A stretch of DNA of 64,000 nt from Acidiferrobacteraceae bacterium. Its GTDB lineage: Bacteria > Pseudomonadota > Gammaproteobacteria > Acidiferrobacterales > SZUA-150. The notes below the pieces were generated by a model that saw only the letters and a program-made list of their open reading frames with translations, ran no database searches and was not told the DNA's origin. The stretch covers positions 3,519 through 67,518 of the forward strand of contig QIGL01000102.1 in assembly GCA_003228915.1 (NCBI GenBank). The letters are read 5' to 3'. How positions within the stretch are numbered: the first letter of the stretch is position 1; each line of letters begins with the position of its first letter. Positions 1,461 through 56,026 of this stretch are shown here, piece after piece. Position numbers and translations under genes: made by a program.

Positions 1461-1697
1461 CCAAAGCCGAGAAAGCGGCTAAAAAGAAGAAAAATAAAGA
1501 CAAGGGCAAAAGAAGAGACAAGCTCAAGCTGAAGGTCAAACCTAAAGCAGAGAAAAAGGAAGAATAACTAGCACAAATCTGCGCTTTATGGGGGGGCTGC
1601 TTTATACTGAAAGCCTGCGGTCGGAAACGTTGAATTTATAACTCCAATATGCTTAAATGTGTATAATATAGTTGAATTATACACATTGGTGATTGCC

Positions 1698-1892
1698 ATG
1701 CGAACAAATATTGTAATAGATGATGAACTCATGGACGAGGCTCTTAAACTCTCTGAGACAAAAACAAAACGTGAAGTAGTTGAGCTTGGCCTTAAAGCCT
1801 TGATTAAGATAAAAAAACAAGAAAATATTAAGCAATTTAAAGGCAAACTGAAATGGACTGGCAACCTCAAAGCAATAAGAGCCAGTAGATGA
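1698..1892 (+). CDS. vapB: VapB-family type II antitoxin (start moved to internal ATG at 1698)
   Basis: MRTNIVIDDELMDEALKLS... is the typical VapB N-terminus; stop overlaps the vapC start in ATGA (1889-1892). Confidence 0.8.
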   Translation: MRTNIVIDDELMDEALKLSETKTKREVVELGLKALIKIKKQENIKQFKGKLKWTGNLKAIRASR

Positions 1893-2281
1893 TATTCGTC
1901 GATTCGAGCGTTTGGATTGATTATTTTAACGGTAATTCCTCCCCTGAAGTCGAAAAACTTGACGCACTGCTAGGAGCCGAACCAATATCTACGGGTGATC
2001 TTATATTGGCAGAAGTTCTCCAGGGCTTCAGAAATGACAAAGACTACAAAACGGCTAAAAGCCTTCTCACCTCTTTAACCATTTTCAATATGCTAGATAC
2101 TAATATTGCTATCAAGAGCGCTGATAATTTTAGACTACTAAGAAAAAAAGGCATTACCGTCAGGAAGACAGTAGATACAATAATTGCTACTTTTTGTATT
2201 CAAAATAAATTATCACTTCTTCATACAGATAAAGATTTTCGACCTTTCCATAAACACTTACGCTTAAAAAATGCCTTGTAG
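1889..2281 (+). CDS. vapC: VapC-family PIN-domain ribonuclease toxin
   Basis: MIFVDSSVWIDYF (first PIN acidic residue context), 130 aa, translationally coupled to the upstream antitoxin. Confidence 0.85.
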   Translation: MIFVDSSVWIDYFNGNSSPEVEKLDALLGAEPISTGDLILAEVLQGFRNDKDYKTAKSLLTSLTIFNMLDTNIAIKSADNFRLLRKKGITVRKTVDTIIATFCIQNKLSLLHTDKDFRPFHKHLRLKNAL

Positions 2282-2397
2282 CACATGACGATTAAGGCCA
2301 GCGGCTGTAAAGCCGTCCGACTGGGGCAATTTGTTAGACGACAACTTTATATTTAACATATTTAAAATCAGAGCAGAAACTTCTTTAACAAAAATCA

Positions 2398-2469
2398 AGT
2401 TTTGACTCTGACACTAAATATCTATTTCATAACCCAAGGATACTGAGTTTTGACTCTGGCCCTAAATAT
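2398..2469. repeat. Two 24-nt direct repeats (agttttgactctgRcMctaaatat) with 48-nt period
   Basis: 2398-2421 and 2446-2469 match at 21/24 positions; located at the point where base composition drops. Confidence 0.7.
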
Positions 2470-2483
2470 ATTTGAAGTGCTTG

Positions 2484-4598
2484 TTAGGCTTTTTCTCCAA
2501 AATATATTTCTTTTGCACGATCGGTAATCTTATTGACAGTAACATTGTCTTTAATTTCTTTGTCAACAAGATTTATGTCTTTTAATGTTTTCGTACGCCA
2601 CCCCACTAATTGATGTGACTTATCAATTAGCGCTGAAACCTCCCCAGCTCGCATTTCTCTATCTTCTGAATACAATACTTCCAGTATGTCCAGCTCAACC
2701 TCTTCGAGTTTTAAATCGTCATTTAGTGTTTGCAATTCATTTATATAGTCATCGGACAAAGACACTTCGCTACATCTTCCTTGTTTACATTCTCTACACT
2801 GCCAATCGAAGTATTTTATTTTATCTCTATCTTCTATAGGGTATGTTGCGTCACATATATCACATTTAATAGTCACTGTTGAAGCAAGAAACTGGTGAAT
2901 AACACTATTAAATGAAAAGCATCTTTGAACAAAATAGCTACGATCATCTCGACGACCCTTGGGATAACCCCACGCAAGCCTCTTGTCTTCACATAGGCCA
3001 TAATTCAAGCAGTAAACGGATACATCCTCGCCAGATTTATTCCTCATCTCGTGGTATTTTGTGACTAGAAAATTCAACTCCAATGAAGCTAACATGGGCT
3101 CTAATGTTGGGTAAATTGTAAAGTGACTCACGGGAGGATTACTTAATCTTTCAAAATACTTCCCTCCAACTTCACCTGTTGAGATTTTTGATTTTAATGA
3201 CCCAGCTTCCGAAGTCAGCTTTTCCAGTAGAATTTGTTGATTGCGACGGTCTAGCTTTCTTGAAAAAGGTTCAGTAGCAAAACGGTTTTTTCTATCAAAA
3301 TAAGCAGATAGCACTTTCTCATAATGCTTTTTTGAGGCAAGCCTAATGCTTTGTAAGGTTATTTTTTCACTTCGAGATATTTGATCAAGATAGCAAGTGT
3401 GAAGTATATGGCCAATTAACCTAGGGACATTAAAGGAAACCTGAAATAGTAGCGAGTAATATTCTTTTAATTCCACTGCTGATGAGAAGAAATCAACAGG
3501 GTTAATACCAAAAGATCGAAACCTATTTTCTAATAGCCTCTTAGTATAGTCAGTGGCCTTTTCCTCCATAGTCTGAACTTCACTGCTTTTATACAGGTTA
3601 AAAAAGTCCAAGTTAATGATGTCAATTTTTCCTGGGTCTATATTTCCGTAATAAACTCGCCCTGGGTAAGCAGCCACCTTTAGTTTTATCTTCTCATCAC
3701 TAGTATTGTTCAGCGGCGCAAGTATAACATCGACAAATAACCTTTGATCAATCCAATTTAGCTCTGAGAAATCGTCAAAAAATACAATCAGACTTGAAAA
3801 AGAAAGTTCATCCAATAATGACGAAAGTTTTATAATGAAATCTTGATAGGGGAAGGTTCTTAACACGGCGCTTGAATATTTAGAATATAATTCATCATCA
3901 TCAAGCACCTCATCGACACTACCTGATCTTAGGTTGAAGCTGCCTGTTGGAAGAACAGGGTTTGCTGAAACCTTAACTTCAGCCGACTCATCTTTTTTAT
4001 TTAATGATCGATGTCTATTTTTGGCCTCATTTTCTATAGATTGCAAGATCGGAATTTCGGTTTCGTTCATAATTCCACTTCTAACCTGCTCCTTGAGCTT
4101 ATTTAATTCTCTTTGCAGATCCTCGTACTTCCAATGCTTACCTAAAAATCTATCAACAATCCCTGTTTTTTTACAGATGCCATCTAATTCATCTATGAGC
4201 CTTGAGAACACCTCGATTAAAAATGATTTCCTAAGTAGGTGCGGCTGTATTACTTCATTATCAAACTCATAACCATCTGGAATTTTTGATAGAACGTCAG
4301 ATGTTTGTGAGCTTTCGTTAATAGATTTAACATCTAAGTAGACAGACAGAGATTCCTTTTTAGTTCTTATCTCTGATTGTGCTCTAGCTATTATCGTACT
4401 CTTTCCGGTGCCTTTTCGTCCAAACAAAAATGTCGTGTTGCCAGAAAGAACTGTGTCTAGGACGGCATTATTCTCAAGAGGGTCAACATAAACAGCGTCG
4501 ACGGGTCTATCGCCGAGCTCAGCCTCAAATTCTTTAAGTTCAGCTCTCTGAAATTTTCTTAGTGATTCCGCAACTCTTGAGAACTTTTTGTGTTCCAT
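2484..4598 (-). CDS. Large P-loop NTPase with 4-Cys ribbon and C-terminal winged-helix-like domain; family not recognised
   Basis: 704-aa ORF, ATG preceded by gaggaaggaag RBS; Walker A GRKGTGKST (aa 60-68, nt 4395-4421); Walker B-like LIVFFDDFSE (aa 270-279); CDIC...CRECKQGRC (aa 579-609); very AT-rich. Confidence 0.75.
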   Translation of the reverse strand: MEHKKFSRVAESLRKFQRAELKEFEAELGDRPVDAVYVDPLENNAVLDTVLSGNTTFLFGRKGTGKSTIIARAQSEIRTKKESLSVYLDVKSINESSQTSDVLSKIPDGYEFDNEVIQPHLLRKSFLIEVFSRLIDELDGICKKTGIVDRFLGKHWKYEDLQRELNKLKEQVRSGIMNETEIPILQSIENEAKNRHRSLNKKDESAEVKVSANPVLPTGSFNLRSGSVDEVLDDDELYSKYSSAVLRTFPYQDFIIKLSSLLDELSFSSLIVFFDDFSELNWIDQRLFVDVILAPLNNTSDEKIKLKVAAYPGRVYYGNIDPGKIDIINLDFFNLYKSSEVQTMEEKATDYTKRLLENRFRSFGINPVDFFSSAVELKEYYSLLFQVSFNVPRLIGHILHTCYLDQISRSEKITLQSIRLASKKHYEKVLSAYFDRKNRFATEPFSRKLDRRNQQILLEKLTSEAGSLKSKISTGEVGGKYFERLSNPPVSHFTIYPTLEPMLASLELNFLVTKYHEMRNKSGEDVSVYCLNYGLCEDKRLAWGYPKGRRDDRSYFVQRCFSFNSVIHQFLASTVTIKCDICDATYPIEDRDKIKYFDWQCRECKQGRCSEVSLSDDYINELQTLNDDLKLEEVELDILEVLYSEDREMRAGEVSALIDKSHQLVGWRTKTLKDINLVDKEIKDNVTVNKITDRAKEIYFGEKA

Positions 4599-4715
4599 TA
4601 TTCTTCCTTCCTCAAGGATAACTTACTTATATTCTGTGCGAGTGAGCCTAACAATTTGTAGTATTTAATGGAGTCAGCATTCTCACAAATTTATATCTAG
4701 AGACCACGTAATTAT

Positions 4716-5552
4716 TTAATTTTTCTTTGGATTCTCCGTCACATTCGTACCACCAGACACATCTGTTATTATTGAGCTAGGTCTTAACCCAAGTTCTGGA
4801 TCATGTAGACCTAATCCTGTAGGTCGAGTTAGTCCCAAGCTGGCTGGCCTAGAAATTCCAAAACCTACGTGTCTGTTATCCAAAAAATCTCCAAAACCGC
4901 CTAAGCCAATCCTTTTGTCCAATAATTCCTTTTCAAGAACAGCTATTTGTTTTTTCTTTTCTTTCACTTCATCATCAAGCCTTTTGCGCGCATCCTCTGA
5001 TGTTCCTTTTTTCTCAACTAGCTCATTTTTTAAACTTTGCAACTCTTCTCCCCTTCCATCTAGTTGTTGCTTTAAATCACTAATTAAACCAATCTGAGTT
5101 TTAATATCTGCTTCTGGCACAATATCCGTCCAATTCTCTACAGAATTAACAGTTTCTTCTTCTAATACGTTACATATTGCTATTATTTCTTCATAATTTC
5201 TCTTCGTGACTTCAGGATGAATTTTAATATCTCCATCACTGCCTATAAAAAGTGAAACTCTTTTCTCAAGTGCAGAAATATTTCGTAATAATAATTTAAG
5301 ACTACGGACTGCCGACTTACCACGAGCAACAACAACTCCACCATCTGAAATATCAACCCAATGTTTTGTAATTCGACCACCCAAGATCGCAGATGCTGCA
5401 GTAATTAAAACAAACAAAAGCGAAGTAATTTTCTTGTCTGTCTGATCAATTGAGAATAAAAATAGCAGCAGTACCCCGATACTCAGCACGAGAGTCCATG
5501 GATCCAAAGCAATACCAATAAACGATATCCACTTACTTTTTAAATTTTTCAT
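4716..5552 (-). CDS. Membrane protein with 2 predicted N-terminal TM helices, coiled-coil region and Gly/Leu-rich tail; family not recognised
   Basis: 278-aa ORF; hydrophobic stretches WISFIGIALDPWTLVLSIGVLLLFLFSI and ITSLLFVLITAASAILGG; charged heptad-like segment; 117 nt upstream of the NTPase gene on the same strand. Confidence 0.65.
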   Translation of the reverse strand: MKNLKSKWISFIGIALDPWTLVLSIGVLLLFLFSIDQTDKKITSLLFVLITAASAILGGRITKHWVDISDGGVVVARGKSAVRSLKLLLRNISALEKRVSLFIGSDGDIKIHPEVTKRNYEEIIAICNVLEEETVNSVENWTDIVPEADIKTQIGLISDLKQQLDGRGEELQSLKNELVEKKGTSEDARKRLDDEVKEKKKQIAVLEKELLDKRIGLGGFGDFLDNRHVGFGISRPASLGLTRPTGLGLHDPELGLRPSSIITDVSGGTNVTENPKKN

Positions 5553-5756
5553 TCAGAATTACTCTTGTTGGGTATAATAGAATACGTGGCTGCTTAACTT
5601 AATACTTCACCAGCTAGTAGAATACTCTCTCGTTACACAATCTTCTATAAAAATTTACCTGTACCTCAATTAAAATTAGGTCGTTCTTACAAAAATTCTG
5701 CTAGATTCCAATCAAACCTACCTTGGAATGGTTGCAACAGTGGCCTCAATAAATCT

Positions 5757-5971
5757 AACCCGCTCCCGAATTAACCCCTGAATATTCCTAAACGCCTGCT
5801 CACGATAACTGCCCTTCTATACAACAATCCAATACGTCTACTGGGTTTGGCATCTTTCTTTGTTTGCTTTTTGGGGCCTGCAAGCTCGGGCATGAGCGTT
5901 AGCCCCATCCCCTCGGCTACCATAAAGCGCAGGGTTTCCAGGCTGGATGCATGAAAGGCGGCGTTTTCTGT
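5757..5971 (-). pseudogene. Degenerate duplicate of the 3' end of oxyR
   Basis: Aligns to 8110-8352. The ~95-nt segment 5877-5971 vs 8258-8352 has 1 mismatch. The remainder is diverged with indels (about 28 nt shorter), so it cannot encode the OxyR C-terminus. Confidence 0.85.
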
Positions 5972-5982
5972 CTAAAATCTGG

Positions 5983-6049
5983 ATTCCCGTTTCCACGGGA
6001 ATGACGGGAAAGACGGGAAAGACGGGCAGATAATGTTGGAATGACGAGA
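5983..6049. repeat. ATTCCC-N8-GGGAAT hairpin followed by reiterated GACGGG units
   Basis: attcccgtttccacgggaat at 5983-6002, then gacgggaaagacgggaaagacgggcagataatgttggaatgacgag; same module recurs at 7871-7919. Confidence 0.8.
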
Positions 6050-6113
6050 CTTGTGATATTGGGTTGTGTGATACGCGCTTCCGAAATTAGCAGCACCTAT
6101 TCATACCTGGCTG

Positions 6114-7406
6114 CTATTTCTTGCTATTCAAGCCTTCAAAAGCAAAAGGATTTAAAAACTGTCGTCCCCAAAAAAGATTTCTATCCACTTTGCTTAACTC
6201 GGCCTCATCACAAACTTCTTGCCAGTATTTCTCAATTATTTCTTTTTGATGCTCAAAAATAGCCAGGGCTTCCTCTTTTGAGAGCAGGAAATGATGGGCA
6301 GCATCTATGCCGCTTGAAATCCTGCTCATGCGATTATCGCCAGCAATTAACATGGCCTGCGAGGCTTCATTACCAGTTCTGCCCTGGGGGCATATATCAT
6401 AGGCGGGGGTTAGGGAGAGCATTTTTCCATCCCAGAATGCCGCATGGTTGCGCGCATGATCATCAGTATTGCCGCATAAGATATTAAAAATTAAACGCGA
6501 GAATAATTCTTTCAGCGTAGCGGCAGGTGCTGTGAATTTATGGCGAATAATTTCTGTAAGGGTTTCATAGCTGGCATATCTTGCCATCATTTCGTCAAGA
6601 CCAAACAGTGTTAATGCTGAAATCATGGACTGACGTTGCCAGCCATTTTTTACTTTCTTGCGATCAAATCGTTCAACCAGCAAAACATCTTTACGGGATG
6701 CTTTCTTGAGCTTAACAGGGGCCACCTCTAAACCGACATGCTTTGCCAATCTCATGGCGATAAATTCTGCCTTGACGATGCTGTATAAATCAGAGCTTAA
6801 AGGAAATTTTGCGACATACTTTTTGTTTTCAGCCTCAATGAGTGCTTTTGGTCGGGCACCGCCAATCGCGCTGCCATGAAACAGGGCTTGATCTAATTCC
6901 GGCGTAAGCGGAACGCCTGCTTCAACACGTTCGGTTGATTTTAATAACTCGTCTAGCGCAACATTGACAGATGAGCGCGGCACATATTCGGTTGGTGACA
7001 ATTGAAAATCGAGCGCGCCAACACGGTCTGATCCAGATTCCAGTAGATAAGTTAGCTCATCAAGCCGGGTTGTATCTGTATCCGCGCCTTTCAGTCCCAG
7101 CTTTTTGTTAATAATAACACGCCGTCCCCATGCGTCTGGCGCACCATCCCTAATACATCCAGGCATGTTAAGACCATCCAGCAAAGGCAAAACACCTGCC
7201 CTTAATGGCAGCTCTTTTTCATAAATAGATATTGCCTGTTTTGTACCTGGCCCTGAATTGTTAGCGCGCTCCAAATAACTTTTGCCGTAATTGAACATAA
7301 GGCTGCCATTATCGGCTTCAAGCTTACCTGCGATCACAGGCGCTGTGTCCTGTGGCAGCCAAATCCAGACAAAGGCTTCGTTATGCGCTGCGTTAGAAAT
7401 CATCAT
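6114..7406 (-). CDS. hipA: HipA-family serine/threonine kinase toxin
   Basis: 430 aa; catalytic-loop-like GNTDDHARNHA; 14-nt overlap with the upstream XRE-HTH gene. Confidence 0.85.
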   Translation of the reverse strand: MMISNAAHNEAFVWIWLPQDTAPVIAGKLEADNGSLMFNYGKSYLERANNSGPGTKQAISIYEKELPLRAGVLPLLDGLNMPGCIRDGAPDAWGRRVIINKKLGLKGADTDTTRLDELTYLLESGSDRVGALDFQLSPTEYVPRSSVNVALDELLKSTERVEAGVPLTPELDQALFHGSAIGGARPKALIEAENKKYVAKFPLSSDLYSIVKAEFIAMRLAKHVGLEVAPVKLKKASRKDVLLVERFDRKKVKNGWQRQSMISALTLFGLDEMMARYASYETLTEIIRHKFTAPAATLKELFSRLIFNILCGNTDDHARNHAAFWDGKMLSLTPAYDICPQGRTGNEASQAMLIAGDNRMSRISSGIDAAHHFLLSKEEALAIFEHQKEIIEKYWQEVCDEAELSKVDRNLFWGRQFLNPFAFEGLNSKK

Positions 7407-7731
7407 CTACCGCCCTTATTTTTTTGCGCACGGATTTAGGCAGTAATGCCAATTTATCTTCAGTCTGACGGATATGCCTTGTGAGTCTTGTTGCATCGAC
7501 ATCAAACAGCTTGACGCCAACAAGCGTGGCAACTTCAAATACTGCACCGATCTCACATTTTAGATCACCTTTCTCTATACGTTGAAGTAGCCCTCTTGAG
7601 ATGCCTGCACGCTCAGCAACCTCCTGGGTTGTAAGCTTGCGCTCTTTTCTGGCAATCCTGATCAGATTGCTTATGAGCTGTACTGCTTCCCGGCTATACA
7701 GGGAATAGGTGCGTGTCTTTGATTTAGGCAT
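7393..7731 (-). CDS. hipB: HipB-like XRE-family HTH antitoxin
   Basis: 112 aa; LTTQEVAERAGISRGLLQRIEKGD helix-turn-helix; immediately upstream of and overlapping hipA. Confidence 0.8.
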   Translation of the reverse strand: MPKSKTRTYSLYSREAVQLISNLIRIARKERKLTTQEVAERAGISRGLLQRIEKGDLKCEIGAVFEVATLVGVKLFDVDATRLTRHIRQTEDKLALLPKSVRKKIRAVDDDF

Positions 7732-7870
7732 ATTTACGTATCTGGTCTATATATAACTCATAATACATCTTTGTGATCTCTATATAGATCAAATTAGCAC
7801 TAGAGTTGCGTGAAATCAAGAAAGTATGTCGATATGTGTGAAATTCCTGTCTTTTTTAACAAAACTCTGG

Positions 7871-8030
7871 ATTCCCGTTTCCACGGGAATGACGGGCAGA
7901 TAATGATGGAATGACGAGGTATGTCGTGCTGGAGTGACGGGGATGACGGGGATGACGAGGTAGGTCGGGTATGACGGGTATGACGGGCAGATAATGATGG
8001 AATGACGAGGTATGTCGTGCTGGAGTGACG
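7871..8030. repeat. Hairpin repeat plus 49-nt direct repeat and short (A/G)TGACG(G/A)G tandem units
   Basis: attcccgtttccacgggaat 7871-7890; gacgggcagataatgatggaatgacgaggtatgtcgtgctggagtgacg at 7891-7939 and 7982-8030; gatgacgggg/tatgacgggt units between them. Confidence 0.85.
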
Positions 8031-8097
8031 ACATCAGCAGCAATAAATCGCCAAGTTTTTTAGCTCTCGATGTCAGTGTGTAATATGGTTCTGTCAC

Positions 8098-8991
8098 TTA
8101 AAGGTCACCAACCCGCTCCCGAATTAACCCCTGAATATTCCTGAACGCCTCCGCACGATAGCTCCCCTTGCGATACAACATGCCGATGCGTCTGCTGGGT
8201 TTGGGTGCTTCGAATGGCAGGTAACGTATCGCATCTTTTTTTGATTGCTTTTTGGGCACTGCAAGCTCGGGCATGAGCGTTAGCCCCATCCCCTCGGCTA
8301 CCATAAAGCGCAGGGTTTCCAGGCTGGATGCATGAAAGGCTGCGTTTTCTGTGGCGCCGGCCATGAAGCAAACATCCAGCGCCTGGTCACGCAGGCAGTG
8401 GCCTTCTTCCAGTAATAGCATTTCACGGTTATTGAGATCGCCCATGGTTATCATTGGCTGGCTGGCCAGTGGCTCGCCCGCAGGGACTGCCAACAGAAAA
8501 GGCTCTTTAAATAACTCCAGCTCGCTGAATTCTTCGGTTTCCACCGGCAGGGCCAGTATCAAAAAATCCAGCTCGGCGCGGCGGAGCTTCTCAAGCAATA
8601 CCGAGGTCTGGTATTCATGGAGCCACAACTTGAGCTTTGGCCAGGTTTTACCGAGGGCAGGCATAATGGCTGGTAGCAGGTACGGCGCGATGGTGGGGAT
8701 CAGCCCTGCGTGCAATTCCCCGGCCATAGGGTCTTCAAAACTCTGGGCAATCTCCTGGATGCCTTTTACATCGGCCAGTACTTTTCTGGCCATTTCGGCC
8801 ACGGCTGAGCCAGCATTGGTCATGGCTACCTGCCGGGTATTACGCTCTACCAGTAATACGCCCAGCTCCTGCTCCAGCTTTTTTAGCTGGCCACTCAATG
8901 TGGGCTGGCTGACAAAACAACGGGCAGCGGCCTTGTGAAAATGGCGTTCTTCATCAATGGCGACCAGGTATAGCAATACTCGTAAATTCAT
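8098..8991 (-). CDS. oxyR: Hydrogen-peroxide-sensing LysR-family regulator OxyR
   Basis: N-terminal HTH ...VSQPTLSGQLKKLEQELG; EEGHCLRDQALDVCF keeps both redox cysteines (E. coli C199/C208 context); divergent from a peroxiredoxin gene. Confidence 0.9.
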   Translation of the reverse strand: MNLRVLLYLVAIDEERHFHKAAARCFVSQPTLSGQLKKLEQELGVLLVERNTRQVAMTNAGSAVAEMARKVLADVKGIQEIAQSFEDPMAGELHAGLIPTIAPYLLPAIMPALGKTWPKLKLWLHEYQTSVLLEKLRRAELDFLILALPVETEEFSELELFKEPFLLAVPAGEPLASQPMITMGDLNNREMLLLEEGHCLRDQALDVCFMAGATENAAFHASSLETLRFMVAEGMGLTLMPELAVPKKQSKKDAIRYLPFEAPKPSRRIGMLYRKGSYRAEAFRNIQGLIRERVGDL

Positions 8992-9147
8992 CGATTCTTA
9001 ATACCATCTCAATTGATTGTCTATACCTATCAATATAGTTGATTTAAACGATTTCTACAATCACTGCTTTGCGGCCATACTCCTCTTCGTAGACTGCTTT
9101 GATAGCAACTGAGAATAATTTTTTATCAACTTAACAGGAGATTTATA

Positions 9148-9891
9148 ATGTTAGAAAATCGTGAAAAACAAAAAATACCCGCAGTGACATTTCGTACCCG
9201 CCAGGATCATGAATGGGTAGATATGAGTAGTGACGAGGTGTTTAAGGGCAAGACAGTTATCGTCTTTTCTTTGCCGGGCGCGTTTACCCCCACCTGCTCT
9301 TCAACCCATGTACCGCGTTACAACAAATTGACGCCGGTTTTAAAGCAACATGGCGTTGATGAGGTGGTTTGTATTTCGGTGAATGATGCCTTTGTGATGA
9401 ACGAATGGCGCAATGAACAAAAAGCAGACAATATCACCTTCTTGCCTGATGGTAATGGTGACTTCAGCCGTGGTATGGGTATGTTGGTCGCCAAAAATGA
9501 TCTCGGCTTTGGTGATCGCTCATGGCGTTATTCCATGCTGGTGAAAGATGGCGTCATAGACAAGATGTTCATTGAGCCTGATGTGCCTGGCGATCCCTTT
9601 GAAGTTTCGGATGCCGATACCATGCTGGCCTATGTTGCGCCTGACGCGGACAAGCCGCTGGACATCACTGTCTTTAGTCGTGAGGGTTGTGCTTATTGTA
9701 TTCAGGCAAAAGGCATGTTGCGTGATGCCGGTTTAGAGTTTGATGAGCTGGTTCTGAATCGTGACTATAGCGAATCAACCATACGGGCTGTTTCTGGCAA
9801 GGCCAGTGTGCCCCAGGTATTTGTTAATGGTGATTACATCGGTGGCTCAGAAGAACTGGAGCAGTATCTTGCCGGTCGCGCTGCAGCATAA
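9148..9891 (+). CDS. Peroxiredoxin (Prx5-type)-glutaredoxin fusion protein
   Basis: PGAFTPTCS peroxidatic motif in the N-terminal half; C-terminal glutaredoxin with CAYC; RBS aggag upstream. Confidence 0.85.
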
Positions 9892-10820: not shown

Positions 10821-11918
10821 TTACAGCCCCCAGGAACGGGCCTGTAATTCATCACGCAGGCGTTGCACAGCAAGTTTTTCGGACCCGTCATAATTGCTCA
10901 ACCCCAGTGTCCAGAGGTAATATTTGAATTCTGCATTGCCAGACAGCCCGAACTCCAAAACCCATTGGTCGACCGTGGCCTCGTTGACATCATATTGCCA
11001 GGTAAAATCGATTAAGTTTATCCGATCCATATGTTTGTCCCAGGCCTTGAATACCGCGGATATAAAATCGGCCTGCAAGGCCTCGCTACTATTGTTAACC
11101 ATGCTCGATGGGTAACCACTTTCCTGAAGTAAGATTGGTTTAGTGATGATTGTGCTGGTCATTAAATCAAAATCAGCCGCGACTGTAGCAGGTGGTCGCA
11201 TGGTAAAATCTGCATTCAGCGGATAATAGGTAAGCGCCGCGCTATCAAGCTGGGGTAAAAAATTTAAATACTGCGTACGTACACCTATATTTTCCAGCGC
11301 GCTGAATTGAATAATGCTGCTGACTACTACGTTGGCGCCCCAAAGGCTTTTTATCTTGCTCTTAGCAGCCACAAAAAACGCTTGCCACTGAGACCACTTG
11401 GTCGCATCACTTCCGAGGCTGACATCAATTTCGTTACCCACATGAATCCATTTCAGTTTGCCAGTAACATTGAGTGTTGTCAGTTGACCGTGCAGGTTTG
11501 TCAAAAAATTACCGAAGGCGGTAATTACCAGCGGGTCATTAAAAGCTTTGCCTGCCAGGTCGCTGGGCAGGCTTGGCCCAATTGTATCCAGTGGCCGTAG
11601 AACCAGTGTGAGATCACCCGTTTGTATCGAATAAAAAGAATCGATAGTAGAGAGCAAGGTATTAATATAATTACCCTCCATAGGCTCAAGTGATGCCCAG
11701 TCCAAAGACACACTGACCTCGCGCACGCCCAGCGCCATGGCCTGATCGTACGCCATGGCATAACTGACAGTTGGCACAGATTTTATATCCATGCCAAGCA
11801 CACGCGTACCCTGTGCCGGTGGTGGGCCAGGATTATTTGAATTACCACCACCGCTGCTACCACAGCCGGCTATAAGCAATAAAAGAAAAATTAATATTAG
11901 ATTCTTAAATATCAACAT
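10821..11918 (-). CDS. Lipoprotein, clan GH-A-like glycoside hydrolase (TIM barrel)
   Basis: Lipobox LLLIAGCGSSGG; HVGNEID (acid/base NE) and LLQESGYPS (candidate nucleophile Glu) spaced as in GH5-like enzymes. Confidence 0.55.
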   Translation of the reverse strand: MLIFKNLILIFLLLLIAGCGSSGGGNSNNPGPPPAQGTRVLGMDIKSVPTVSYAMAYDQAMALGVREVSVSLDWASLEPMEGNYINTLLSTIDSFYSIQTGDLTLVLRPLDTIGPSLPSDLAGKAFNDPLVITAFGNFLTNLHGQLTTLNVTGKLKWIHVGNEIDVSLGSDATKWSQWQAFFVAAKSKIKSLWGANVVVSSIIQFSALENIGVRTQYLNFLPQLDSAALTYYPLNADFTMRPPATVAADFDLMTSTIITKPILLQESGYPSSMVNNSSEALQADFISAVFKAWDKHMDRINLIDFTWQYDVNEATVDQWVLEFGLSGNAEFKYYLWTLGLSNYDGSEKLAVQRLRDELQARSWGL

Positions 11919-12172
11919 ATTTTCCTTTTGTAATAACCCGGTAATAATTTAAATAGGCGTTATTTAGGCAGGCTGGGCAATCTATTTCCTGTCAACGCTT
12001 ACTAATAACCAGGACACTAATTCTGGAGAATTTTGAAAAATATTTATAAAAAGAACAGAAGTGCGATAATTAATCACGCATTTTAAAATGGTTTACAGAA
12101 ATGCGAACGATTCCTGCCGGGGGGTTCGTTTTATTACAACTGCTTGCGATTAGATCCAGGAATTGGTCGTGA

Positions 12173-12433
12173 TTATTCAATAGATAAACCACTAAAATCA
12201 TAGTTCATATCATCTACATCACACTCAGCACCAGTTTTATCAATTGCATCCTTGTATTTTTTGGCATCGTCAAGCGAAAGATTTTCTTTAATTATTTTCG
12301 GCGCAGAACATAATAATTCCTTGGCCTTTTCATGTGATATCTTGAAGAGTTTCGCAAGGTCTTCCTCAATATAATGCTCACCTTTACCGGCGGTGTAACC
12401 CTTCAAAACTACTTTATAATGTTCATCAGACAT
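12173..12433 (-). CDS. Small hypothetical protein (86 aa)
   Basis: Isolated ORF with a plausible ATG; no family recognised. Confidence 0.4.
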   Translation of the reverse strand: MSDEHYKVVLKGYTAGKGEHYIEEDLAKLFKISHEKAKELLCSAPKIIKENLSLDDAKKYKDAIDKTGAECDVDDMNYDFSGLSIE

Positions 12434-12658
12434 TGCCTTTCTCCACTCACCCTTGATTCAACATAATACTTTAAGCCAATTTCATGTGTGCGCCCGCTAC
12501 CTGAGATTGGCCATTATTAGCGCTATTTCTCAGGGACACTGGCCATATCTATGAGTTTAGATTAAAAATAGGGGTTGACACTCTTTTTTATCGATTTTTA
12601 AACCTTCCGACCCTGTTTAACAGTGTTTTTTTTATTTCGCAGGCCCTTTTAACAACAT

Positions 12659-14035
12659 TTATCGACTCGTCAGGGTTTTTTGCAATATATCCTGGTAATC
12701 CCTGATTCTCTGGACATAAAGTACCGGCTCGCGGCCGCGAGCATAACCATGTTTTAACCCTGGATAGTAGTTTTTGTCTGATAGTAATGGCAATACTTTG
12801 GATATTTCCCGCCATAAATCCGGATTTCTTTTAAGTTGGCGTGCCAATGTGCGGGCATCATAAATATGGCCCATACCGATGTTATAGGCGGCCAATGCAT
12901 ACCAACTGCGATCAGGCTCCTTGATGCTTTCGGGTAACCGTTGATATAAGTTGGCATAATATCTGGCCCCGCCACTAATACTTTGTGCCGGATCCTGGCG
13001 ATTTTCGATGCCGAGCCCCCTGGCAGTATTAAGCGTTAACATCATGATGCCCCGCACGCCCGTTGGGCTTTTGGCATTAGCTCGCCAGCGTGATTCCTGG
13101 TAGGCCTGGGCGGCAATTAGCATCCATTGCAGGTCATTTTCTTTTGCTGCTTGTTTAAACATATCCCGGTAAAGCGGCAAGATCTTCTCTATGCTGCGCA
13201 CGAAAGCACGGGTATTCACGTAATCGAATATCTTGATATAACCGTAATAGCGATTATCCAGTTCTGCTAGCTGACCGGATTTTTTAAATTTGTTAAACCA
13301 TTTTTTAATTTCCTGTTGCAGTGGTCTTGCCTTGGGACTCATAAGCCAGACCAAAGGTTCGGCTTTGGTAAGGCTAAAGCGAACTGATAGTTCAGGATAA
13401 TAACGACGGTTGATTGCGACAATATTTGAATCTGCTACCGTACAGTCCAGTTTCTTTAACCAGACTTGTTCCAGTAAAATTTCAGTGTTAAGCCCGGCGC
13501 CTGTTTGCCATTGCAGTTCTTTATATTTTTGTTTTAGGCGAATCAGATTTTCTTCATAGCTTGTATTTTCCGGAACAAGTATCTGCACATCAGTCAAGTC
13601 ATTAATATTTTTAGGTCGTTTGCCGCCATTTCGACAGACTACTTGCTGTTGTACTTTTTGGTATACCGGCCCGAATAAAAACTGGTCGTCTCGCTCTTTC
13701 GTTTTCGTCAGTCCAGCTGCCGCTATATGTGCCTCGCCATTGGTAATGGCTGAAATTATTTCAGCTGTAGATTCTTTTTCTATAAATTTTACTTTGACGC
13801 CAAGGTGCTCGGCAAATGCAAGGGCCATGTCATGCTCAAAACCCATCCATTCGTCATGCAGCTCATAGTAAGTAGTTGGTGCATTCCTGGTAACAACAAT
13901 GAGTTGTTTTTTTTCTTTAATAGACTGGAGCGCTTTTTCTCCAATTATTTTTTCCGAGCAGGCACTTAATACTACTAGCGCTAATATTGATGCCGATAAA
14001 TATAATAATTTTTTTCTATCTCGGTAGCGGGACAT
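12659..14035 (-). CDS. mltF: Membrane-bound lytic murein transglycosylase F
   Basis: Signal/lipobox region, periplasmic-binding-protein-like N-domain and SLT domain (QAYQESRWRANAKSPTGVRGIMMLT). Confidence 0.85.
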   Translation of the reverse strand: MSRYRDRKKLLYLSASILALVVLSACSEKIIGEKALQSIKEKKQLIVVTRNAPTTYYELHDEWMGFEHDMALAFAEHLGVKVKFIEKESTAEIISAITNGEAHIAAAGLTKTKERDDQFLFGPVYQKVQQQVVCRNGGKRPKNINDLTDVQILVPENTSYEENLIRLKQKYKELQWQTGAGLNTEILLEQVWLKKLDCTVADSNIVAINRRYYPELSVRFSLTKAEPLVWLMSPKARPLQQEIKKWFNKFKKSGQLAELDNRYYGYIKIFDYVNTRAFVRSIEKILPLYRDMFKQAAKENDLQWMLIAAQAYQESRWRANAKSPTGVRGIMMLTLNTARGLGIENRQDPAQSISGGARYYANLYQRLPESIKEPDRSWYALAAYNIGMGHIYDARTLARQLKRNPDLWREISKVLPLLSDKNYYPGLKHGYARGREPVLYVQRIRDYQDILQKTLTSR

Positions 14036-46506: not shown

Positions 46507-46723
46507 GTAAAGAGCCGAATGGCACTGGCTTAAACAAAAAGCACCGTCATTCTGCGCGAAACGAAGTGCAGACCCGGAATCCAGAGGTTTAAAACATTGT
46601 CGGTTGGTCGCATGGGTAACATTCACGAGGCCGGTCGATGGCATACCCTGGATTCCCGTTGCCACGGGAATGACACTGCTCCACATCTCCTGGGCTTAAG
46701 TCAGTGCCATTCAGTAAAGAGCC
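46507..46723. mobile_element. MITE-like element: 17-bp TIRs flanked by a 10-bp direct repeat, with nested hairpin repeats
   Basis: gtaaagagcc at 46507-46516 and 46714-46723; gaatggcactggcttaa (46517-46533) vs ttaagtcagtgccattc (46696-46712), 16/17 complementary; contains attcccgttgccacgggaat (46652-46671). Confidence 0.65.
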
Positions 46724-55800: not shown

Positions 55801-56026
55801 CATACCGGCGAAAGCCGGTATGAAGAAACTTAAACCCTGGACTCCGGCGTTCGCCGGAGTGACGCGGGTTGTCATTCCATCACCCCGTCATTCCTGTGGA
55901 AGCAGGAATCCAGGGTTTGATCTTTTAAATTACAACAAAGGAGTTCAAATGCCTTAATTCTCTGGATGCCGGCTCGTAGGCCGGCATGACAGTGCTTTTT
56001 GTTCAAGCTAGTGCCATTCGGCTTGT
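55801..56026. repeat. Cluster of four short hairpin (REP-like) repeats plus a 41-nt module shared with the 46.5 kb element
   Basis: cataccggcgaaagccggtatg (55801-22), actccggcgttcgccggagt (55841-60), attcctgtggaagcaggaat (55890-909), atgccggctcgtaggccggcat (55966-87); 55985-56026 is ~36/41 identical to the reverse complement of 46511-46552. Confidence 0.75.

Follow-up and report, generated by a model that had tools for sequence, protein, structure and literature searches.

Downstream of oxyR, in a 64,000-nt stretch of contig QIGL01000102.1 from an Acidiferrobacteraceae bacterium (hereafter the window), a second and degenerate copy of the 3′ end of this gene lies beyond a small insert that carries the genes hipB and hipA (hipBA). 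The arrangement is a real, old and fixed feature, and it is a scar that is decaying. Our favoured explanation, to which we give about an even chance, is a single old insertion event combining homologous with illegitimate recombination (3′-end displacement), through which oxyR would have received a substitute coding end and lost its own. The locus adds one more case to a type of insertion scar that is already known and shows no new mechanism.

Pairwise alignment and a repeat finder place a direct, degenerate copy of oxyR positions 8110-8352 at positions 5757-5971 of the window. When oxyR was compared with the whole window by blastn, this was the one additional match (81.9% over 243 aligned nt, E 2e-70), and a third oxyR fragment, which would be a sign of tandem islands, was not found. 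The similarity is distributed unevenly along the copy. The inner part (5877-5971 vs 8258-8352) differs at 1 position across 93-95 nt, whereas the outer parts (5757-5876 vs 8110-8257) are about 88% identical, i.e., they show ~12% divergence over ~120 nt. The step in identity is located at oxyR nt 733/734, with 1/93 differences before it and 16/122 after it (Fisher P = 7e-4). The displaced copy (the remnant) is shorter by 28 nt owing to one 27-nt deletion of nine codons and one frameshifting 1-nt deletion. Weak homology of the remnant extends ~15 nt beyond 5757, through the former stop codon, and is clearer in the close relative L021 described below. The initial annotation, which was made from the sequence alone, had described the degenerate second copy, its inner ~95 nt with a single difference, its diverged outer end and its shortening by ~28 nt, and all of these were recovered.

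The remnant begins inside the gene, at oxyR nt 640, directly against a repeat block (R′). The interval separating the two copies (5972-8097; 2,126 nt) includes a spacer, blocks of repeats that are similar to repetitive extragenic palindromic (REP) sequences, and intact hipB and hipA. Following the minus strand downstream of oxyR, the order is the spacer, block R, hipB, hipA, block R′ and the remnant abutting R′, which is the layout of intact oxyR, insert and displaced remnant that had first been annotated. Besides hipB and hipA, the interval has no genes, and it contains just a 93-aa open reading frame (ORF) within the repeats which has no Pfam match.

The age of the insertion could be determined by comparison with the only close relative that was returned by scans of genomes and metagenomes with OxyR, i.e., L021 (VAPH01009739.1 of GCA_006240795.1; L023 is the same contig), an independent assembly. 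Its DNA is 96.5% identical to the window over a stretch that starts at a ligB-like gene and takes in oxyR, hipBA and the remnant. It has the identical junction of R′ with oxyR nt 640 and the identical 27-nt deletion, and the two sequences are 96.6% identical in the insert and 96.5% in the core flank. The shared junction and the equal divergence of insert and flank indicate that the insertion took place before the two lineages separated and was passed on vertically from then on. In addition, the same structure in an independent assembly excludes an assembly artefact. The contig was probably derived from a metagenome, a point in favour of an artefact or of a chance similarity, but with an E value of 2e-70 and the same structure in an assembly with 3.5% divergence this explanation is refuted by L021 and can for practical purposes be dismissed.

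The remnant of L021 is without the 1-nt deletion of the window and carries a different one, i.e., the frameshifts are independent. It also shows six transitions in nt 649-670, and oxyR nt 671-733 are identical across all four copies (intact gene and remnant of the window and of L021). Between the two remnants, identity is 91-93%, compared with 96.5% for the surrounding DNA. This difference and the separate frameshifts are an indication of neutral decay as a pseudogene.

In order to reveal which of the two ends is native, fixed differences between the intact gene and the remnant in nt 736-883 were polarised with the nearest relatives outside the lineage, L001 and L072 (OxyR 90% and 91% identical, respectively), as outgroups. 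Seven differences are derived in intact oxyR against one in the remnant, with one further ambiguous case; at 7/8 of the polarised sites, it is the remnant that has the clade-typical state. The lineage-specific sites of intact oxyR are concentrated in its distal part, where 19/148 are found (nt 736-883) against 27/640 in the first 640 nt (P about 5e-4). These 19 sites represent a 2.4-fold excess over the 7.8 expected, a value that allows for the 1.25-fold faster rate of this segment in the outgroups. The respective count for the remnant is 9/120, with 6.3 expected. Judging by these comparisons, the remnant has the behaviour expected of an end inherited vertically, whereas the end now used by oxyR is the outlier and was probably imported.

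In the window, the two copies differ in 12 codons. Eight of these differences are synonymous and the others (S/T, M/L, A/E and E/Q) are conservative (P = 0.003 vs random decay). Since the differences are mostly synonymous, both ends must have evolved as parts of working genes in different lineages. The donor would be a hypothetical, unsampled relative within the same clade, and none of the sampled OxyR has a C-terminus or 3′ DNA closer to the imported end than those of L001 and L072. The GC content at third codon positions of the imported end is 54-59% vs 46-49%, a difference that is not significant on 39 codons. In nt 865-880, the remnant of the window is identical to the intact gene, while that of L021 keeps outgroup-like states; this pattern reflects patchy gene conversion between the copies.

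The polarity of the ends also bears on a different origin, i.e., a tandem duplication of the segment that extends from oxyR nt 640 to R′ and includes hipBA, after which the second hipBA was lost and the ends diverged in place. Such duplications are common; this one would create exactly the junction of R′ with oxyR nt 640, and the nearly identical inner 93 nt also fit it. We consider it improbable, because at least three events are needed (duplication, deletion and divergence) and because in-place decay leaves the mostly synonymous differences (8/12 codons) unexplained. The location of the derived states in the functional copy and not in the pseudogene is equally unexplained, and so is the sharp step at nt 733/734.

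According to the favoured 3′-end displacement, the incoming DNA would derive from a related bacterium and would have carried that bacterium's own oxyR end, a short spacer, REP-like repeats and the hipBA cassette. By recombining into the resident oxyR, it would have left the first ~733 nt of the resident gene in place and provided the ~150 nt which now end it. The last ~250 nt of the resident would have moved downstream by 2.4 kb and would be what is now the frameshifted fragment. The join was presumably made by the general recombination of the cell and not by a dedicated integrase. On one side there would have been a homologous exchange within oxyR and on the other an illegitimate join of the end of R′ to oxyR nt 640, either through homology-facilitated illegitimate recombination or through a Campbell-type crossover of a circularised fragment. 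A hairpin-forming repeat is found directly at the illegitimate junction.

Several points weigh against this explanation. Both the recombination pathway and the gene order of the donor are inferred, the pathway not being directly observed, and the candidate microhomology at the junction is just a possible overlap of 4 nt (ACAG) that the R-type flank (7840-7851) would share with oxyR nt 640-643. Since a single event sets nt 640-733 of donor and resident side by side, the identity of the inner 93 nt requires explanation, either by an extra step of conversion or by a donor that was coincidentally identical there. It is best explained by later gene conversion, by this segment being the crossover region itself, or by a donor nearly identical in this part. 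Among the sampled loci, neither a donor arrangement (oxyR-hipBA without the remnant) nor a recipient arrangement (a remnant-type oxyR end and no hipBA) was found, and the hypothetical status of the donor, to which no sampled C-terminus is nearer than the outgroups, counts here as well. Finally, the excess of changes in the distal part of the intact gene could be due to faster evolution after the event instead.

Displacement of 3′ ends by homologous and illegitimate recombination has been proposed for loci of type VI secretion systems (T6SS), rearrangement hotspots (Rhs) and contact-dependent growth inhibition (CDI) (PMC5361080, citing Jackson et al. 2009). The oxyR locus resembles these loci in its order, in which a conserved 5′ part is followed by a new 3′ end with adjacent genes and then by an orphaned old end that starts inside the gene, and presumably also in incoming DNA that was anchored by homology and required no integrase. 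The Rhs, CDI and T6SS loci encode polymorphic toxins, the new tip of which is functionally different and selected, and their orphans accumulate in arrays (PMC5361080). On the contrary, the gene concerned here is a housekeeping regulator with equivalent alleles, its cargo is an unrelated toxin-antitoxin (TA) pair, and neither distinct tips nor an array of orphans is present but a single orphan.

The initial annotation had interpreted the two copies as the attL/attR repeats of an element that integrates into the 3′ end of a gene and supplies a replacement end. The second half of this proposal is sustained by the 7 vs 1 polarised differences, the 2.4-fold excess and the mostly synonymous pattern. 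The first half is unproven and less likely than a displacement driven by recombination, with no recombinase, no recurrence at the target, and no empty or excised forms seen. A site-specific integrative element of the e14 or phage 21 type at icd would have an attP that mimics the oxyR 3′ end and a tyrosine or serine recombinase that was lost or acts in trans. In Escherichia coli, e14 provides icd with another 3′ end, the differences of which are for the most part silent, and the icdC fragment remains at the far side in direct orientation (PMC13626634, citing Hill et al. 1989). The topology at oxyR matches this case, in which the working icd extends into e14 and the 3′ pseudogene icdC stands at the far end (PMC13626634). 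Direct repeats of the 3′ segment of the target gene bracket the insert, and the working gene, kept functional by the insert, ends in insert-borne and divergent sequence, unlike the native end that persists in the remnant as a pseudogene. Moreover, the near-identical 93-nt block could be the crossover region, and the insert is missing from L001 and L072.

Despite these similarities, we regard an integrative element as rather unlikely. As the initial annotation had already noted, no recombinase remains; domain searches revealed none in the interval from deaD, which encodes a DEAD-box helicase, to oxyR, and the ORFs of 150 aa or more in the 64-kb window are all without a recombinase or transposase domain. 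e14 is a 15-kb prophage remnant with an integrase and still excises, whereas here the element would consist of 2.1 kb of repeats and a TA pair, fixed and decaying. The block of identity has decayed in L021 (the six transitions in nt 649-670), which means that it is not maintained. Recurrence at the same target in other hosts was not seen either, since the duplicated oxyR end and a downstream hipBA are both missing from ~60 further oxyR loci of GTDB genomes and JGI metagenomes, and scans of IMG/VR with HipA and with the DNA of the oxyR end were empty. The hipBA-bearing elements with an integrase at oxyR, for which the initial annotation had suggested a search, were not found in these loci. Nothing indicates present-day mobility of the insert.

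A search for an oxyR locus without the insert had also been suggested. In L001, the genes upstream of oxyR are conserved, and downstream of the single oxyR end there is an unrelated 428-aa ORF and no hipBA. L072 also has a single oxyR end and no hipBA, and its contig stops 227 nt after oxyR. Both loci lack the insert, yet the DNA downstream is unrelated to the window: the native flank was sought by comparing the DNA downstream of either oxyR copy with that downstream of oxyR in L001, and nothing significant was obtained, nor did the spacer at 8031-8097 show significant similarity to this DNA. An empty site at within-species distance was not found among the relatives, the one close relative (L021) carrying the insert. 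The initial annotation had stated that an ancient, fixed duplication with no empty alleles would speak against its reading, and this is partly the case, as a relative that is 3.5% diverged shares both the junction and the deletion.

The features of the locus are listed below.

Table. Coordinates of features of the oxyR-hipBA locus and of the adjacent block in the window
Feature	Position	Strand	Remarks
Intact oxyR (297 aa), chimeric: native to about nt 733, then probably imported allele (~last 150 nt)	8098..8991	-	NCBIfam OxyR equivalog
oxyR inner duplicated part, nt 640-733	8259..8352	-	One mismatch vs 5878-5971
oxyR outer duplicated part, nt 734-882: substitute, probably imported 3′ coding end	8110..8258	-	~12% divergent from remnant; excess of lineage-specific sites
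Unique 67-nt spacer right after the oxyR stop codon	8031..8097	-	Conserved in L021
Repeat block R: hairpin ATTCCCGTTTCCACGGGAAT (7871-7890), short GACGG-type repeats, two 57-nt units (7883-7939, 7974-8030)	7852..8030	+	
hipB, 112-aa helix-turn-helix (HTH) antitoxin	7393..7731	-	Pfam HTH_3/HTH_31; overlaps hipA by 14 nt
hipA, 430-aa HipA-family kinase toxin	6114..7406	-	Pfam HipA_C, E 2e-47
hipBA cassette extent shared with hipBA in unrelated contexts, promoter to hipA stop	6129..7822	-	77-85% identity to L068, L069 and L070 (blastn); homology stops at these limits
Repeat block R′: same hairpin as R (5983-6002), three ACGGGAAAG units, one diverged 57-nt unit; abuts remnant	5972..6069	+	
Displaced native oxyR 3′ end, pseudogene fragment, nt 640 to former stop	5741..5971	-	27-nt deletion shared with L021; 1-nt frameshift in the window only
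AT-rich accessory block, 4.3 kb, 36% GC vs about 50% around; between remnant and DEAD-box helicase gene	1461..5756	.	

Blocks R and R′ are direct copies of a ~100-nt block that flank hipBA and are 75-89% identical. Their hairpins fit the formula ATTCCC-N8-GGGAAT exactly, as does a third one at 46652-46671 (3 vs 0.28 expected), and they sit within a wider consensus, CTGGATTCCC...GGGAATGACG. With a diverged member at 55886-55911, the family has four members in the 64 kb, two of which are placed in other intergenic regions (46650 and 55886). Long arrays were not found in the window, nor hairpin blocks at the oxyR loci of relatives. A 91-nt tandem duplication inside R (7883-8064) yields its two 57-nt units; L021, which is collinear apart from this, has a single unit there, which shows that the length of the repeat array varies between close lineages.

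In Neisseria, 20-bp inverted repeats of this formula (dRS3) flank repeat sequence (RS) units in arrays and are the target of a Piv-like recombinase (PMC1797815). The likeness of our locus to the Neisseria intergenic mosaic elements (NIME) is that the hairpins on both sides of hipBA match the 20-bp formula and are followed by short repeat units, and, as in NIME and minimal mobile elements, a small accessory cassette is located between conserved genes (PMC1797815). The host differs, being a sulfur-oxidising gammaproteobacterium near Acidiferrobacteraceae and thus of another phylum-level lineage, with just four family members in 64 kb, no long arrays and no evidence for a cognate recombinase. Repeats of the NIME type have been reported as not seen outside Neisseria (PMC1797815). 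The resemblance to dRS3 may be convergent, and the hairpins alone do not explain the oxyR duplication.

The same likeness gives rise to a model in which the repeat blocks themselves served as recombination sites. A hairpin-specific recombinase would have moved hipBA with one dRS3-like block into a hairpin downstream of oxyR, and the oxyR fragment would be a by-product. The direct ~100-nt blocks starting with the dRS3 formula (PMC1797815) on either side of hipBA, and the dispersal of their family in the window, are in line with this. However, the oxyR duplication is left unexplained by it, the window encodes no such recombinase, the two blocks are just 75-89% alike and related hipBA cassettes elsewhere are without hairpins, so that we give it little credence.

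These related cassettes are 77-86% identical in DNA to that of the window and were found by blastn in unrelated contexts (L068, L069 and L070). Around them, an oxyR fragment or mimic, flanking direct repeats and hairpin blocks were sought and not found, which further argues against an integrative element with an attP of the oxyR type. In L069, the related hipBA stands beside an array of CATCTGA heptamers in tandem and a CCTGGCAGTGTCCTACTTT motif that occurs three times (1560-1600 and 3319-3743), and a TA pair with a PIN domain is located immediately upstream of hipB.

It is conceivable, with a very small chance of being right, that the 2.4-kb unit of substitute oxyR end, dRS3-like blocks and hipBA is a minimal mobile cassette without an integrase, circulating among related sulfur oxidisers by means of a recombinase encoded elsewhere, which would act at the oxyR 3′ end or at the hairpins. 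This would represent a NIME-like exchange of cassettes outside Neisseria, by which a persistence toxin is placed beside the regulator of oxidative stress.

Turning to the gene products, the 297-aa protein reaches the NCBIfam OxyR equivalog NF008361 with 357 bits against a cut-off of 329 and contains the Pfam domains HTH_1 and LysR_substrate. The redox cysteine pair (GHCLRDQ...C) is present, with the GHCLRDQALDVC motif in the translation. A gene for a peroxiredoxin-glutaredoxin (Redoxin-Glutaredoxin) is located at 9148-9891, divergent from oxyR. The product of hipA also matches Couple_hipA weakly. With a HipA_C toxin gene after an overlapping HTH antitoxin gene, hipB-hipA fits the HipBA type II TA module, an activity that is predicted here. 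The HipB protein is 100% identical in L021, and HipA is intact in L021 (98%) and L022 (96%). Exact-protein look-ups retrieved L021 only for HipB, and no match for OxyR, HipA or the peroxiredoxin-glutaredoxin of the window. Scans of 5400-9200 with Rfam and for promoters and terminators gave nothing above background. Genes for Sox, DsrE and phosphoribulokinase in the window are consistent with a sulfur oxidiser, and in scans with OxyR the window fell near uncultured Acidiferrobacteraceae.

The locus is a natural example of a core regulator gene that survives an insertion into its coding end by means of a working substitute end. Its old end is a datable fossil, with independent frameshifts and conversion patches in two lineages. 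A TA cassette has become fixed directly behind oxyR, in a stretch where further accessory genes are found, namely vapBC and one for a possible defence ATPase, and the interval between oxyR and deaD thus stands out as a local hotspot of accessory DNA within this lineage of uncultured sulfur oxidisers.

These other accessory genes belong to the AT-rich block (1461-5756), which adjoins the scar and is outside the insert. It includes vapB-like and vapC genes at 1699-2280 (E 7e-49 for the VapC equivalog), a P-loop ATPase of 704 aa that has a zinc-ribbon-like CxxC pair at its C-terminus and matches the Sll1717 family and the antiphage DS41 weakly, both below cut-offs, and a 278-aa protein of no family; there is no recombinase among its genes. 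From its gene content, the block looks like a small defence/TA islet. The flank of L021 past the remnant is unrelated to it. Beyond the former stop of the remnant (L021 4673-4753 vs window 5600-5745), the two 96.5%-identical assemblies are unrelated, and a second variable or recombination boundary is thus located exactly at the old oxyR end.

In four distant loci (L015/L041, L055 and L056), a DEAD-box helicase gene is found convergent to oxyR and ~0.5-1.3 kb after it. The adjacency of deaD and oxyR may be ancestral, as in the window minus 1461-8097, although with 34-37% identity these helicases are maybe another paralogue and the comparison is not relied on. Further dips in GC content, to 36-40%, are located at 11800-12600 and 13200-14000, near genes of 365 and 458 aa.

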